Shown piece by piece: positions 2,724-57,499 of a DNA stretch of 64,000 nt. Origin of the DNA: an uncultured Poribacteria bacterium (lineage in GTDB: Bacteria; Poribacteria; WGA-4E; WGA-3G); contig OX638351.1 in the NCBI GenBank assembly GCA_951813565.1, forward strand, positions 4,800,001 through 4,864,000, written 5' to 3'. The number at the start of each line of letters is the position of its first letter. Within the stretch, counting starts at the first letter, position 1. Position numbers and translations under genes: made by a program. The notes below the pieces were generated by a model. The model had not been told where the DNA came from. It was given only the letters and a program-made list of their open reading frames with translations, and ran no database searches.

Positions 2724-3066
2724 TAATGGGACACTTCTGTAGCGCAAACTTTATGAAGTTTAAGAAAATGAATCGGTAATTTTGCGAGGTTAGGAAACCT
2801 CGCCAGCAGAGGTGGACACATGGCTTGTGCAGACAGGAAATTACCGAATTAAAAAATTAATCTTCATTTAGTTTGCGTCTCATAAGGCACAAACTAAAAG
2901 TTTGTGCTACAACTTCTATTGTCCATTATCTTTCCAAGACAAGTTTAGCAAAGTGTCCCAATAATTTCAAAGTTCACTATACATAAAAATATTAGATGTT
3001 TATCTTTCAGTTTGTGGCGTTTGTAGTCGCGCAATTTATTGCGCCTCTTATATTTACAGTATATGC

Positions 3067-7790: not shown

Positions 7791-8029
7791 AGGTGTGTAA
7801 AGTTTTTGTAGAAATCCGCACAACTCCTATTTTAGGGGGGGAATGCCAAAAGGCATTCATACCCGGTGAATGACTAAATGTCGTTCATACCGTTGATTTC
7901 TTGATTTGGTGCCTGCTGCCCGTTGCATGGCACGTCCTGCGCAGTAGCGGGACAGGGACCCCGCCCTACAGTGGAAAACGCCGCGTAATCATTGCAAATT
8001 GAACCTATGTAACCAATATTTACACACCT
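7791..8029. mobile_element. MITE with GGTGTGTAAA ends (IS256-like) carrying REP and AATCAAC-hairpin modules
   Basis: aggtgtgtaaa / tttacacacct; homologous to 62577-62753 and 57380-57499. Confidence 0.7.
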
Positions 8030-18447: not shown

Positions 18448-18841
18448 CTTGATTCATATTTATGGAGCAGTTAGGAAAACGTACCTTATGCGTCAATTTA
18501 AGGATATACCCTCTTGTGGGAGCGAATCAACGCAGCATGCGCGTCCGGCATGCTGCCAAATCAACGCCAAATGCGCTTTTTGGCATTTGTCGGGTTTTCA
18601 ACCCCGATTTTCTTCTGTAGGAGCGACCTCCCGGTCGCGAGCTGGAGCTCGCTCCTACAGAATGTCCGAGGCGACAAGTCATGGCGAATACCACGCGTAT
18701 TCGCCCAAGTGCGCTTGGCGTTGATTTGGCAATGAATTGCGCGACTACAAACGCTTTTTTTCTTAAATTGACAGTTATGGAGCGGTTAGGAAACCGCTCC
18801 TACCGTCCGGAAAATGCGATAAATCCCGTTAATTTGGTATA
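18435..18841. mobile_element. Composite MITE (TATACCAAATTAAC ends) with nested CGTCAATTTAAG-ended MITE (18491-18773), REPs and AATCAAC-hairpin modules
   Basis: tataccacattaac / gttaatttggtata; the right part is the reverse complement of 39177-39260. Confidence 0.7.
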
Positions 18842-24503: not shown

Positions 24504-24863
24504 CTGTTTGAATGCAACGGGAAAGACAAACTATGGTGGATTATTGTAATAATTGGACACTTTACTTGTAGGAGCGATCTCCGAATCGCGACGAAACGGC
24601 TTGATAGTCGGGAATCGGAGTTCCCCCCGCCAAATACCATACGCGCATTTGGCGTTGATTCACAGTTCAAGAATGTCCAATTAATTCTAAAATCTACCAT
24701 AATTACGCTACTATAGTTTGGACAATTTGATCCTGTCAGGACTTCCGAATAAGTGTAAAAACTGCAATATAAAGGCTCTTGTATCTCTGAGTTTTGTATG
24801 AAATCACTGTATTTTGCGATATTTTTTGCCAAGATCGTCAAAAATGTGTAAATCTGCTCAGTT

Positions 24864-28706: not shown

Positions 28707-30926
28707 CTACGGAGACAGGTTAATAGGCACAATCCATCCCTTTGTGTCGGCAGGTTTGTAGGTATTATCCCGTAGATAATCCGAAGTGTGCCATAAGCAG
28801 AGGCTTTTTCCGTCCGGCATCCAGACGATAGAGGCGAGTTTCATTGATGTACGGGCAATCGGATATTTCTTGCCACTATCTAAGTCATATATCCAAATCT
28901 TCCAACGGAGTCCAACACAATCTTCACGTTCTAAATATGCTAACCGTTTCCCAGTTGGCGACCATGCAGGTGCAGTGTGCTTGATAATTTGGTGTTTCGC
29001 TGATTCGTCAGTAATTCCTGCAATGTGAAGCCGTTTATCAAAAAAAGGGTCAGCACGATTGCTTCCGGAAAGCACGTAAGCGATTTGTGTGCTGTCGGGT
29101 GACCACCGCAACTGCCGGACACGTTGATGTTGCGTTGGAATCTGTTTCAAACGTTCCCCTTCTACATTTTGGATACGTATCGCTGCGTACGGCACTGTTC
29201 CGTTGCCGACTTTTTGATCTTGTGTCACCTCAAAAGCGAGTGTATCTCCATCTGGCGACCAAGAAGGCGCGTGCCAATAGGTGTACTCTTGCCGAGTTCG
29301 TTTAAATAAAACTCGCGCAACGCTCCTACTGCCGCTACCGTCACTGTTAATCCGATAAATATAGTCATAACCCTTTTCGCGCCGTCTAAACGCCAATTGA
29401 TTAGCAGTAGGTGACCAAGTTGGTGCTGCACCTTTTACCAGTTTTTTGATATGTCCAAATTTCCAATCGGCAGTCAAAATAAATCGATCACCATCTATTT
29501 CGGCTTCAAATGCCAATAGACGACTATCCAATGACCAAGAAACATGTGGATTGTAAAACTGACCGGTATGGAGTTTTCGCGATCGTTTCCCCTCTTTGTC
29601 CATAATCCAGAGTTCACTCGCCTTCCAATAACTTCCACTCAGATCGGTTCTTTTCAGCATGGCAACGCGTTCACCATCTGGACTCCAATAAGGGTATTCT
29701 GCACCTTTGATCAGATGTATTATCCGAGGCTTTCCACAAAAGTTGGTGTTCAACAGCATCCCATCTGTTTCTTCAAATTGCCCAAAAGCAAATCTATCTA
29801 TCCATACTTGTTCCTTATTCGGTAGTTCAACCTGATACCAATTCTGTGCGGTTTGAAGAATCGGCAAGTACGTGCCATCATTGAGTCGGTATAAAGGTGA
29901 AGTTCCATTTTTCTCTGCATAAACAGGCGCATTATCACGCGTAACAAAACCATGCTCACGTGTATCATCTGCAATCGGTGTACTTTCGGTGGCATTGGCA
30001 AACGCATAGATTGCACCGTCAGTAGATGCTGCATAGAGGACACCATCTGAAATCGCAGGTGCTGCATTCACAGGACCGCCAACCTGATGAGACCAAACTT
30101 CTGTTTTAGACGTTGTATGAATCGCATGAATTTTTCCATTGAGCGCACCGATATATACGAAACCGTTTGCAGTGATCGGAAAACTCTCACTTCCTTCTGT
30201 ATATTTACGCCATAAATTCGTGTTATACTGTGGAATAACGGGACGAAACTCTGCATTCGTACATCCATATTCTATTCCGTTGATTGTAACCATGCGTTGA
30301 CGTTCCGACTTAAGTTTACCAGTGATGGCATCCAGTAGGTAAATTCGTGTTGGAAATGCGCCAGTATAGACTGTGCCATCAAAAACAACTGGCGGTGAGT
30401 CCATCCAACCTCTGGCTTTGAATTCCCAAAGGACGTCTCCCGTTTCTGCATTAAGCGCGTAGAATAGGTTATCACGTGTGCTGAAATAGACGCGTCCTCC
30501 CCAAACAACAGCTGAAAAACGGATTGCACTGCCAGCATTGAAAACCCATTTTATTCCCCATTCTTTAGCATCTAAAGCATAAAGTTTGCCATCTGTAGAA
30601 CCGATATAAAGTATCTCGTTAGCTACCACCGGAGATGCGCTTATAGGACCGCCAGTCTTAAATTGCCACAACAACTGTAGTGGAGGCTTAAGTTTCTTGT
30701 CCGGGCTTTTGCCTGATAACTGCAAGTCGTGCATAAACATGTGCCAATCTTCAGCACGAAGAGGGGTAATAGGCGGCGTAATGACTTCAGGAGAATCGGT
30801 CTTTGGGGCAGGTGAATTCTGAGGTTTATCTGGCGAATTACAAGCCAAAAGGAAAAACAGAGGGACGAAAAAAAATAAAAATGCTATGAAAATTATGAAT
30901 TTTGCGTTTTGAAGCATGATTAGCAA
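28707..30926 (-). CDS. Lipoprotein with PQQ-like (BamB-type) beta-propeller, SH3-like domain and TolB-like PD40 repeats
   Basis: Lipobox LLAC; SPVV..LYIGSTDGKLYALD repeats; NWYQVEL..WI; multiple P.WSPDG repeats. Start may be 30917. Confidence 0.8.
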   Translation of the reverse strand: MLIMLQNAKFIIFIAFLFFFVPLFFLLACNSPDKPQNSPAPKTDSPEVITPPITPLRAEDWHMFMHDLQLSGKSPDKKLKPPLQLLWQFKTGGPISASPVVANEILYIGSTDGKLYALDAKEWGIKWVFNAGSAIRFSAVVWGGRVYFSTRDNLFYALNAETGDVLWEFKARGWMDSPPVVFDGTVYTGAFPTRIYLLDAITGKLKSERQRMVTINGIEYGCTNAEFRPVIPQYNTNLWRKYTEGSESFPITANGFVYIGALNGKIHAIHTTSKTEVWSHQVGGPVNAAPAISDGVLYAASTDGAIYAFANATESTPIADDTREHGFVTRDNAPVYAEKNGTSPLYRLNDGTYLPILQTAQNWYQVELPNKEQVWIDRFAFGQFEETDGMLLNTNFCGKPRIIHLIKGAEYPYWSPDGERVAMLKRTDLSGSYWKASELWIMDKEGKRSRKLHTGQFYNPHVSWSLDSRLLAFEAEIDGDRFILTADWKFGHIKKLVKGAAPTWSPTANQLAFRRREKGYDYIYRINSDGSGSRSVARVLFKRTRQEYTYWHAPSWSPDGDTLAFEVTQDQKVGNGTVPYAAIRIQNVEGERLKQIPTQHQRVRQLRWSPDSTQIAYVLSGSNRADPFFDKRLHIAGITDESAKHQIIKHTAPAWSPTGKRLAYLEREDCVGLRWKIWIYDLDSGKKYPIARTSMKLASIVWMPDGKSLCLWHTSDYLRDNTYKPADTKGWIVPINLSP

Positions 30927-38557: not shown

Positions 38558-38631
38558 AATCTGCCTTTTTCCAACCCATAGATATTCTATAGTGTCAGTT
38601 TAATCGTTCTTATACCATTTCTATAAAATAA

Positions 38632-38997
38632 CATACTTTGGACAATTTTAGCTGTTTTCGTGAGGTTGGGTTAGAGAAAAACATATAGTTTTCATATTGG
38701 ACACCTGTCGCCCCGCTGGGGCTGAAGCGGGTTGTTTACCGCGTTTCTATACACCTGTCGCCCCGCTGGGGCTGCCCAAAAGGTATTTTGGACGAGTTCT
38801 TTCAGCCAGCAAAATCGCAGAAAATATAAATAATATAAGATGACACCTTAGCCCCAGCGGGGCGACAGGTATATAGAAGAAGGTAATTGCCGCTGTCTAA
38901 AGCCCCAGCGGGGCGACAGGTGTCCAATATTTTGCTTTGGACACCTAACAGTTTCTCAGCAAGTCCTCGAACAATATGTAAATTGTCCAAACTATAG
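38632..38997. mobile_element. Second copy of the 368-bp MITE, nested in an ATACCA-ended MITE (38612-39136)
   Basis: Near-identical to 1444-1811; 10-bp TSD tataaaataa (38622-38631, 38998-39007). Confidence 0.85.
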
Positions 38998-39053
38998 TAT
39001 AAAATAACATACCTTTTAATAAATAGCTGGTTCGTAGTCGCGCAATTTATTGC

Positions 39054-39087
39054 CAAATCAACGCAGCATGCGCTTGTGGCATGCTGC
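39054..39087 (+). repeat. 34-bp AATCAAC-hairpin module inserted in a GTAG REP
   Basis: Filled site here; the same REP is uninterrupted at 3023-3047. Confidence 0.7.
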
Positions 39088-39644
39088 GCCTCGGACATTC
39101 TAATTCGAAAGGGAAATTCATTTATAGAATTGGTATTATTTATTGGGACAGGTTCTTATACTTGTCCCAACGTTGTTATACCAAATTAACAGGATTTATC
39201 CTATTTTCCGGGCGGTAGGTGCGGTTTCCTAACCGCACCATAAGCGTCAATTTAAGAAAAGTAATACCAATTCTAACGTGAGCTTGATAATTAGAATAAA
39301 TTTAGATGTCCGGTGGGTAGAGCGTAGCGAAACCCATAAATCAACGCCAAATGCGCGTGTGGCATTCAGCGGGACTGAAGAGCGTTTGACATATTCAGAA
39401 TATACCTAACAAGAAATTACCGAATTAAAAAATTAATCTTCATAAAGTTTGTGCTACAACTTCTATTGTCCATTATCTTTCCAAGATAAGTTTATCAAAG
39501 TGTCCCAATAATTTCAAAGTTCACTATAAATAACCCTGCAGGGAAAACTTGCCTATTAAAGTATTTTACGTTATAATAAAAAATAAGAAGAACTTTTAGG
39601 CCACCCAATATCACACCGTCCAAAATCCATAGGAAGATAGAGAA

Positions 39645-48044: not shown

Positions 48045-48311
48045 TCAAATCTAATACCATTTCTAATTGACAAATTATCATATCGGTTTTCTGTATAAAT
48101 TACCTGTAGGTCGGGTAGGGCAGTGAAACCCATAAATCAACGCTATGAATGCCTGTTGGCATTCATACCCGCCAAATGCCTCAATGGCATTTGTAGCGTT
48201 GATTTCTTGATTTGGCGCATGCTGCACCTCTTTGAACTTGTGGACGGAAACCCACGGCGTGTGCGGACTACCTTTAAGCGCATATTTAACATCGGAATTA
48301 TTTATGCACAC

Positions 48312-51251: not shown

Positions 51252-52595
51252 CCTTTAGGTAGGGGATGTCCACGGCGAAAGTTTTGATTTAAAATATACT
51301 TTTCAATCTAATCACAATGTGGTATAATATATCATACTATATTGTAACTCTTGAAGTGATAAAAGACTATATTGAAGGTCAAAGTGGACAATGAGAAAAT
51401 CTCACAAGTTCAAACTTCAACACCAATCTAACACAATCAAACTTGGTAATATGCTTGATGATATGTGGGAAATCCATGTGCATATCATGCGTTTGGCACG
51501 TAGGTATTATCGCATGTTCGGCAAAAATTTGTCTGCGTATCGTCTGAAGGCACATGTTGCGAAACTCAAAAAAACAACTAAACCACACTGGGCGGACTTG
51601 CCGAGTCAAGTTGTTCAAGACGTTGTCCTACGTTATGGTAAATCACAAGACGCATTTTTCCAAAATATAGCAAGCCGCAAATCAGGTAAAACAACGCGTA
51701 AAGTGGGTAGACCGAAAATCAAACCGAGACACAAATACAACTCCATGACCTTCACACAAGCGGGCTACAAACTTGAAGGGAACCGTATCAAAATCAACTG
51801 TATAGATACATGGTTTTCCTACCACAAACACCGTGATTTCAAAGGAACTATCAAGACAATCACAATCAAACGCGATAGGTGCGGTGACTATTGGATATGC
51901 TTTTCGTGCGAGAATGTTGACGATTCCGAACCCAAACCCAAGACAGGTAAGAGCGCAGGATTTGATTACGGAAACAAAACATTCCTCACAAGCGACGAAG
52001 GGGACACAATAGAATCCCCGCAGTTTTTCAAACAATCACTCAACACGTTGCGATCTCTCAACAAAGCACTCAGTCGTAAAGTCAAAGGTTCTAACAACTA
52101 TTATCGTGCGTGCCGTGCTTTAGCAAGACAACACAGAAAAGTTGCCCGACAAAGAGAAGATTGGCAATGGAAACTTGCCTCAAAACTTTGTGTAGAGTTT
52201 GACACACTCATTTTGGAAACGCTGAACCTTGACGGTATGAAACGATTATGGGGACGTAAAGTTTCTGACCATTCTTTCTACCAGTTTCTTCAGATATTGG
52301 AACAGAAGTGTGCGAAGCACGGCAAAAAACTTGTGCAAATCTCGCAATGGATAGCAACAACAAAACCTTGTAGTGATTGTGGATACCATAACAAAGAACT
52401 CTCTCTTTCTGATAGGCAGTGGACATGTTCCGAATGTGGTTCACACCACGACCGAGACACCAACGCTGCTATCAATATCAAACGGGCAGGCTTGGCTGCC
52501 TAAAGTGGAGCGACAGTAAGACGGTCAACTCTCTGAGAAAACCGCAGTCGCAAGGAAGCACAAGCCCCTACCTTTAGGTAGTGGGTACCTATGAC
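51252..52595 (+). mobile_element. Second copy of the IS605-type TnpB element, left end truncated
   Basis: Homologous to 21484-22847 but starts in the middle of the LE hairpin, abutting the IS50-like TIR; RE ends tatgac. Confidence 0.9.
51391..52503 (+). CDS. tnpB: TnpB RNA-guided endonuclease
   Basis: About 18 aa differences from the first copy by manual count; D-E-D and zinc ribbon intact. Confidence 0.95.
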   Translation: MRKSHKFKLQHQSNTIKLGNMLDDMWEIHVHIMRLARRYYRMFGKNLSAYRLKAHVAKLKKTTKPHWADLPSQVVQDVVLRYGKSQDAFFQNIASRKSGKTTRKVGRPKIKPRHKYNSMTFTQAGYKLEGNRIKINCIDTWFSYHKHRDFKGTIKTITIKRDRCGDYWICFSCENVDDSEPKPKTGKSAGFDYGNKTFLTSDEGDTIESPQFFKQSLNTLRSLNKALSRKVKGSNNYYRACRALARQHRKVARQREDWQWKLASKLCVEFDTLILETLNLDGMKRLWGRKVSDHSFYQFLQILEQKCAKHGKKLVQISQWIATTKPCSDCGYHNKELSLSDRQWTCSECGSHHDRDTNAAINIKRAGLAA

Positions 52596-56772: not shown

Positions 56773-57128
56773 TCACAAACCTTTCTTGTTAGGCGAGATC
56801 TCTATCAAGCGCCTATTTCAACATAATCAAATTGAGGTACAAAACTGTGCACTCTTGAGTATTCAAAATTATACACGATAGCTGTTGAAATTTCAAGAGG
56901 TAATCTAAATATCATCTAATACAGGAATTTGACTAAAAATAACGTGAGTTTGATAAATCCCGTAGGGAATCAACACCGAATGCGCCTATGGCATTCGGTG
57001 GGGTAGAACGGAAATGGACAATAAAAACAGACCCTAAAGCAGGGTTATTTAGTTTTAAGAATTATCAGTTCCTGAGTTTTACTGTGAGTTTATATCGTCC
57101 GTCGGGTAGAGCTTGCGAAACCCATAGG

Positions 57129-57499
57129 CGTCAATTTAAGGATTTATTTCAGGTTTCACACATTTTAACCCAAACAACACCGCAACCCCGATTGTAGGGG
57201 CGGGTCTCTGTGCCCGCCCGTTGTTTAAATACATCAGATATGGCGGGGCACCAAATCAACGGTCCGAATGCCCTTTGGCATTCCCCGTCCGGCATGCTGC
57301 CAAATCAACGCTGAATGCCAAAAAGCGCATTTGGCGTTGATTCACTCCCACAAGAGCGTATATCCTTAAATTGACGGCTATGGGGCACCAAATCAACGGT
57401 ATGAATGCCTTATGGCATTCCCCGGGACCCCGCTCTACAGTGGAAAACGCCGCGTAATCATTGCAAATTGAACCTATGTAACCAAATATTTACACACCC
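57129..57499. repeat. Mosaic of a CGTCAATTTAAG-ended MITE (57129-57376), REPs, AATCAAC-hairpin modules and an IS256-like MITE right end
   Basis: Shares segments with 18491-18773, 7947-8028 and 62668-62753. Confidence 0.65.

Follow-up and report, generated by a model that had tools for sequence, protein, structure and literature searches.

The SDRs of Elhai et al. (2008) are reportedly 21-27 bases long, nest in each other and show compensatory structure together with site-specific changes of the flanking bases. Contexts with and without an SDR are said to exist, often inside other repeats or other SDRs. PATEs are non-autonomous derivatives of IS200/IS605, and the peel-and-paste chemistry of IS608/ISDra2 loses no target bases. 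Rickettsia palindromic elements (RPE) are 100-150 bases long. In non-LTR retroelements, target-primed copying gives asymmetric junctions with small deletions. According to the accessible text of PMC4390886 and PMC5861425, SDR5 inserts into HIP1 in a precise-looking manner, and SDRs are reported there only from the Nostocaceae. Excerpts of PMC3733652 describe CGTC REPs, likewise without a known transposase, as well as Rickettsia palindromic elements and intragenic REPs that are inserted in protein genes which stay open. The available part of PMC3116915 argues that single REPs are immobile and are left over from doublets. Elements of the IS200/IS605 group have a single-strand hairpin substrate, left and right ends and no target duplication, as stated in the available part of bioRxiv 10.1101/279083.

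The window analyzed here is a stretch of 64,000 nucleotides from the genome of an uncultured Poribacteria bacterium (G000), where it is part of one 5.43-Mb contig with 43% GC. The Poribacteria family that holds G000 is denoted f1; other labels denote genera (g13, g9, g10) or genomes (G001 etc.). An earlier note on the window had described an intact REP, a second copy of the same REP carrying an insert, and about 14 related modules. Re-reading of the sequence showed both REP copies to be as described. The insert in the filled REP comprises 34 bases (39054-39087), and the G at 39088, just past this module, pairs with the final C of the leader. The heptamer AATCAAC occurs 26 times in the window, compared with 15.7 +/- 3.7 in shuffled sequences. 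Fourteen of the 26 are leaders of modules at the places indicated by the earlier note, several of them being parts of composites and not separate simple copies, and the remaining 12 are without a module hairpin. A search of the window against Rfam gave no match. A repeat of about 390 bases with GCCCC-type REPs (38621-39009), of which there are several 98-100% copies in G000, directly precedes the filled REP. The features are summarized in Table 1.

Table 1. Modules and associated features of the window (positions in the window; a slash within a motif marks the point of insertion)
Feature	Position	Strand	Remarks
REP, empty copy	3023..3047	+	Same REP type as 39034..39092
Bulged-stem module, hairpin 7838-7863, leader 7901-7908	7838..7908	-	Second bulged module, 7865-7900, nested in leader
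Two direct-tandem modules in GGGAG/GGGTT REP	18523..18591	+	CG-leader 18523-18556; CA-leader 18557-18591
Module in REP type of 39034, interrupted by CAT-head hairpin family	18690..18728	-	Left limit approximate
Module at GT-A-GG type site	24629..24662	-	G-leader; target A overwritten
Beta-propeller/SH3 gene	28707..30926	-	No module found inside; in g13 homologs one codon site holds an in-frame module
GTAG-tagged REP split by one module	39034..39092	+	Split at C/G step of 3' arm
Module: CA + AATCAAC leader + 9-bp stem, 7-base loop	39054..39087	+	-13.1 kcal/mol, z -4.4
Module with chimeric arms	39337..39370	+	Two flanks = two different REP types
Composite	48133..48214	.	+ module 48133-48168; hairpin common to - leader 48207-48214, which contains nested module 48171-48206
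Module	56966..56999	+	First stem pair A-T for G-C (compensatory variant)
Bulged-stem module	57252..57286	+	Followed by loop and 3' arm of another module
One hairpin, leader at either end	57301..57344	.	+ 57301-57335; - 57309-57344
Bulged-stem module	57389..57423	+	Empty form of its REP has single A instead

The module consists of two variable bases (XY), the leader AATCAAC, a hairpin and a terminal G that pairs with the C of the leader, and is 33-36 bases long. Of the 2358 AATCAAC sites in G000, 439 precede a perfect stem of 6 bp or more, compared with 0.9-1.8% for ten control heptamers. Using an iterative scanner, 654 modules were detected in G000 and 2 in the reversed genome; 640 of the 654 are 34-36 bases long. 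A stricter start filter removed 64 of them, leaving 590. Interrupted copies are under-counted, since a second scan left 172 residual leader-plus-arm starts. The total for G000 is about 600 modules. The straight type (n=422) has a 9-bp stem and a loop of 7-8 bases that usually begins with GC and ends with G, and the bulged type (n=166) has a stem with a 2-base bulge. The cores of long ORFs, which make up 72% of G000, hold 12 of the 654 scanner modules, about five of which look genuine.

Covariation was determined in 28 hand-picked copies, seven from the window and 21 from low-copy genomes, caught with a pattern that fixed the central bases. In six of the ten stem pairs both bases have changed, and the covariation score of 0.284 compares with 0.132 +/- 0.016 in shuffles, none of 500 of which reaches it, and with at most 0.092 when the partners are slid. 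The AATCAAC leader is present in all 28 aligned copies, which were selected by that leader. In a set of 90 distinct stems, pairing is often absent at the second pair, and the two AT pairs at the center hardly vary. Folding of the module as a single strand is under selection, as are the leader and the pairing. The covarying stem proposed in the earlier note is supported, except that one of its four examples, gaacgac/gtcattc, has a C-A mismatch and shows no compensation. Stem mismatches lean towards better folding of the reverse strand (A-C 35 vs G-T 20, p 0.058; C-T 15 vs G-A 2), in counts that are not independent because of chimeric arms, so that the reverse strand is favored only weakly as the one that may move.

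In G000 the 590 modules form 104 flank clusters, which comprise many REP types and also the loop, the 3' end and the leader of other modules. The module is accordingly not a fixed internal part of one MITE. The REP type of 39034..39092 is represented in G000 by 158 empty and 86 filled copies, and in G055 filled and empty units are adjacent in one tandem REP array. On the basis of the flank contexts and the filled/empty pairs the module is a separate, very small unit, as the earlier note had suggested, and it almost certainly is or was mobile. The empty alleles used in these comparisons are repeat families or species at 71-93% identity and not parent-daughter pairs. Among the matches listed from sequencing runs there was no unique-site empty allele; contigs break at repeats. 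Most copies share few flank contexts, and multimers are mostly direct tandems or nests. When other short insertion families were sought de novo, nests of AATCAAC modules made up most of the output. The proposal that the modules target REPs holds for the many REP types that are filled in G000, but it is not a rule. The targets in G001 (12 stretches of 20 kb picked for their copies) are non-palindromic GGATTAC-type tandem repeats, entered at C/GG, and in g13 a gene is the target of an in-frame insertion. The GGATTAC-type repeats, which are the main target of the modules in G001, cluster around multi-copy genes, and these are presumed to resemble Uma2- and Rpn-type nucleases.

The straight form of the module was found in 78 of the 111 other f1 genomes and in none of 64 genomes of other families. 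The bulged form is present in 95 of the 111, including all 39 of the genus, and was found once in one of the 64 genomes outside f1. G001 and G053 carry the bulged form; neither form was found in genera g9 and g10 or in genome G108. Among the matches listed in species-representative genomes (at least 80), 77 are from Candidatus Poribacteria and 3 from 'uncultured bacterium'. Sponge metagenomes are among the runs that contain the module, and there is no RNA run among those listed. In viral contigs a loose pattern matched 12 stretches, all of them chance non-hairpin matches in ORFs, and two strict patterns gave 0 and 1 match, the latter without the 3' arm. The best reading of this distribution is inheritance of the modules through one Poribacteria family. 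A description of this element in Poribacteria was not found in a literature search that covers few subscription papers. The modules form a real family of mobile repeats of very small size that, within the literature covered, had not been described.

The module inserts as a single unit and without target duplication. The 223 distinct contexts in G000 represent 450 of 509 junctions, and restriction to contexts whose matched empty form was seen at least 2 times left 21 junction families. Nine of the 21 look precise, with two bases added and a lost G replaced by the G of the module. The other 12 are not clean insertions. Four of them gain two bases and have an A or C overwritten, and another four gain one G and have the A of an N-A-GG site overwritten. 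Of the remaining four, TA is missing from one, two are short of two bases, and one has gained the module without any loss. A non-G base is overwritten in nine of these 12 families, and a same-flank G-variant empty site was found for none of these nine. The loss of target on the leader side is 0-4 bases (0-2 in the junction families, 3-4 in the gene described below). Landing occurs directly 5' of target bases rich in G, in most cases GG. The hairpin is followed by G in 34 of 41, 34 of 38 and 14 of 19 flank clusters of G000, and in 98 of 101 contexts in other genomes (GGG in 86), where the search pattern forced GG for most. The junction is asymmetric: the hairpin end is exact, with G beside a G-rich target, and the leader end is variable. 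At one target, C/GGGAGGG, the XY dinucleotide is CA, GG, CG, AG or TA and therefore belongs to the donor. G-variant empty sites are rare in four REP classes (4 vs 133, 12 vs 213, 5 vs 118 and 3 vs 242, or 1-6%) and number 26 vs 56 in a fifth. Since they exist, a choice of such rare variants could mimic some of the overwriting. Judged from these site counts, mimicry by target choice would be least likely for the leader class, that with 3 vs 242 empty and 126 filled sites.

The preferred explanation, held tentatively and a little short of probable, is a folded single strand that is joined or primed exactly at its G end and healed at its leader end by microhomology. The module would be a non-coding, non-autonomous unit that travels as a short folded single strand, with DNA likelier than RNA. 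A protein would recognize the leader together with the stem's constant AT pairs and would join the hairpin-G end exactly, or the G end would prime through G:C pairing with the target. Host repair would then heal the leader end where target and donor flank match over 1-3 bases. Such healing would account for the XY brought along from the donor, for the overwriting and for the small deletions, an argument that is partly circular because the product always displays the match that explains it. Most copies would have arisen later, by amplification of the filled repeats themselves, and crossovers within hairpins would have given rise to chimeric, double-leader and leaderless forms.

The in-frame insertion was studied in the best 30 loci from 112 genomes, ranked by likeness to the filled allele; 7 are filled and 23 empty. 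The module adds ten residues and the gene stays open, with a conserved tryptophan codon replaced. One filled lineage has a G-leader, and another has an A-leader and a different loop; the target's own C precedes each. Both lineages show a net gain of 30 bases with 3-4 target bases lost, and in one of the lineages the leader of the module is decayed. On the tree of the flanking gene at least three changes are needed, and a single filled clade is rejected (p-AU 2.6e-92). The simplest reading of these sequences would be at least two independent gains at the codon site, and losses or gene conversion may add to the patchy tree. The site is filtered by selection for the reading frame. In G000 one cluster comprises 162 related proteins (e.g. 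C1:3462329-3464224), which are beta-propeller-like by eye.

Among the other modules of the window, the module at 7838..7908 has the C of the leader replaced by G. A contig of run X4 has a single A in place of the 35 bases 57389-57423 (joint 57388-57424); the sequence is multi-copy, so this is not a strain allele. Besides the double-leader hairpins of the window (57301-57344, 48133-48214), leaderless hairpins exist elsewhere. A second family of micro-elements, with a CAT head and a hairpin, the same loop types and the opposite polarity, gave about 105-123 matches in G000. It inserts at AAT/G within the stems of AATCAAC modules, the example in the window being 18690-18728.

With double-leader and leaderless hairpins and with flanks from different REP types, the modules seem to act as crossover points. 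Chimeric arms, hairpins with two leaders or none, and mixed flanks show recombination inside the modules, and few contexts account for most copies. Both observations would suit an origin without any dedicated enzyme, in which stalled hairpins and repeats exchange sequence through template switching or short-patch gene conversion and the copies spread as host repeats are amplified. Such an origin is decidedly improbable, given that neither the 7-base leader nor the central AT pairs vary between stem lineages or among four genera, whereas the outer pairs covary, that boundaries lie within 0-3 bases of the unit, and that unrelated unique coding DNA was entered more than once.

The earlier note had named an HUH Y1/RAYT enzyme as the mobilizing agent. 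An enzyme of this kind (RAYT/TnpA-REP or a remote relative) would bind the hairpin, cut one end and join it to a 3'-OH of the target. In G000 there are five IS605-type and five RAYT-like Y1 matches, with RAYT genes at C1:5070800-5071267 and 242023-242493 among them, and also many GTAG REPs. The absence of target duplication fits, and the N-A-GG targets read CC/T on the reverse strand. As described in the available part of PMC8266576, TnpA-REP cleaves close to hairpins, at CT (and CA), and joins 3'-OH ends that are free in vitro. However, no Y1 enzyme tracks the modules, and the proposal is now considered unlikely. PF01797 was not found in 7 of the 112 f1 genomes, including G001 (97% complete, 78 copies), G023 (one contig, 42+96 module pattern matches) and G010, all with many modules. 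The profile of the commonest RAYT type of G000 matched 19 of 39 genomes of the genus but gave no match in G055 (187 straight copies), G014, G023 and G001, and it is common (7 of 11 and 19 of 29 genomes) in f2 and f3, families almost wholly without modules. The earlier note had also pointed to a search for a Y1/RAYT gene flanked by the motif; no Y1 gene of G000 is specifically module-flanked, and the copies nearby lie within the RAYT's own REPs. Furthermore, the targets in G001 are not hairpins, and many junctions lose target bases, unlike those of peel-and-paste. A divergent HUH enzyme outside the profiles, or one recently lost, is possible. For all genes discussed here absence means 'not found', because all genomes are metagenome assemblies. 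The TnpB gene of an IS605-type element lies in the window at 51391-52503, with 43 related ORFs in G000. A resemblance of the module to IS605/TnpB ends was not seen in G000, and no gene-sized insert between orphan module halves was present among those listed.

The asymmetric junctions and the small deletions would also fit target-primed copying of an RNA intermediate in a SINE-like manner, in which CC-3' of the target pairs with the G tail of the RNA and the far end is healed by microhomology. G000 encodes DRT4 and a further reverse transcriptase whose neighbors are Cas1 and a CRISPR array. An RNA route is distinctly unlikely in view of the distribution of RVT_1, which only 17 of the 39 genomes of the genus have and the module-rich G006, G012, G048, G049, G001 and G023 lack, so that neither Y1 nor reverse transcriptase is detectable in G001. 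In addition, the orientation of modules relative to the sense strand of tandem neighbors shows no clear bias (88 vs 109). The stand-alone reverse transcriptase (465 aa) and Cas1 are located at C1:3988991-3992061, with the CRISPR array beyond 3992700, and a module sits between the reverse transcriptase and Cas1 genes. The DRT4 antiviral reverse transcriptase (C1:811749-813284) exceeds the NCBIfam cut-off.

A tyrosine recombinase that acts on a folded single strand, as the integron integrase or XerC does on folded sites, drew attention by its co-occurrence with the modules. Six of the nine PF00589-negative genomes within f1 are without the module and a seventh has one, compared with 5 of 102 PF00589-positive genomes without it. 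The only tyrosine recombinase of G000 is an unusual protein of the catalytic domain alone (207 aa) with all catalytic residues. The co-occurrence is explained by kinship, because five of the six negatives belong to outlying genera. The recombinases do not form one group of orthologs; G001 and G023 have members of a different 310-aa family without a BLAST match to that of G000. G045 and G050 have 30 and 91 pattern matches and no recombinase match; the G000 type lies in a syntenic position, with a conserved palindrome of its own upstream and no module next to it; and a single strand exchange should delete no target bases. This reading is therefore very improbable, and as a co-occurring enzyme the tyrosine recombinase was rejected, since orthology fails with at least three unrelated types. 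The sole tyrosine recombinase found in G000 is encoded at C1:4771354-4771977 on the minus strand and is syntenic in the genus; the upstream palindrome is strongly conserved, with 11-base arms and a 14-base spacer. Most of f1 is without the high-scoring 300-aa Xer-like proteins of the sister families, and 9 of 111 genomes gave no recombinase match.

Among the 27 genes listed as module-flanked on both sides in G000, no enzyme was recognized by eye from the N-terminal sequence. No multi-copy protein family near modules is clearly enriched in G000, and the neighbors of modules in 22 low-copy genomes (30 loci) share no common enzyme gene. A search for IS110 found none in G000. In five genomes the Ku profile gave no match, the GxxExxY/PDDEXK_3 profile gave one marginal match, and the Y2/IS91 profile gave none, with the control likewise silent. 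Cas1 was rejected as a candidate: it is present in four of five genomes and absent from G006, and its target duplication is not seen. A leading/lagging test gave 277 of 509, with a GC skew that yields no usable replichores. The cumulative GC skew does not divide the G000 contig cleanly into two replichores, which is consistent with heavy rearrangement. The analysis yielded neither an enzyme nor an intermediate of the movement. The enzyme would probably be a vertically kept protein outside the Y1, reverse-transcriptase, IS110 and Ku profiles. A broader proposal, that the modules use an unrecognized host-encoded mobility pathway that is neither a transposase nor a reverse transcriptase nor a classical site-specific recombinase, with one end exact, the other healed by microhomology and ten codons writable in frame, is possible but rather doubtful.

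The movement of repeats shorter than 40 bases has been an open question since the SDR report, and the module provides testable rules for it: the leader does not vary, the stem is free in sequence but paired, the G end is fixed, a dinucleotide is carried over, and the target is GG. Near-complete genomes with many copies and without a detectable Y1 transposase or reverse transcriptase are a natural exclusion. The 112 f1 genomes, which include module-free genera, make the enzyme searchable by comparison of gene content. An enzyme that pastes a 35-base strand beside GG would be of interest as a tool for writing short inserts. The modules themselves add ten residues to proteins and act as apparent crossover points in intergenic DNA.

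Compared with described systems, the module differs from MITEs in its asymmetric ends without terminal inverted repeats or target-site duplication. With Rickettsia palindromic elements it shares insertion into genes whose frame stays open; it is much shorter, and genes are a rare target. Absence of target duplication and a hairpin single-strand substrate, the latter inferred for the module, are features in common with IS200/IS605 and PATEs. However, the module has one hairpin instead of two subterminal ones, a variable leader-side flank instead of a conserved tetranucleotide, and junctions at which target bases are lost or overwritten. Like GTAG and CGTC REPs it is a mostly extragenic, high-copy hairpin of 20-40 bases with an unpaired tag at one end. 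The tag is the 7-base AATCAAC and not GTAG or CGTC, the module moves as a singlet into empty REPs and a gene and not as an inverted doublet, and, unlike REPs with their RAYT, the modules do not flank a RAYT gene and are present without Y1 genes. The closest known kind appears to be SDR1-8 of the Nostocaceae, whose mechanism is unexplained as well, and by analogy the module probably works like them. As far as the available SDR texts describe them, both are non-coding repeats of very small size that insert in a precise-looking manner and have no known enzyme. The traits reportedly shown by SDRs are likewise seen in the module, namely filled and empty contexts, a compensatory stem and changed flanking bases. 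The module differs in that it is longer than the reported SDR size, belongs to another phylum, has no fixed palindromic target and is shown to insert in frame into genes.
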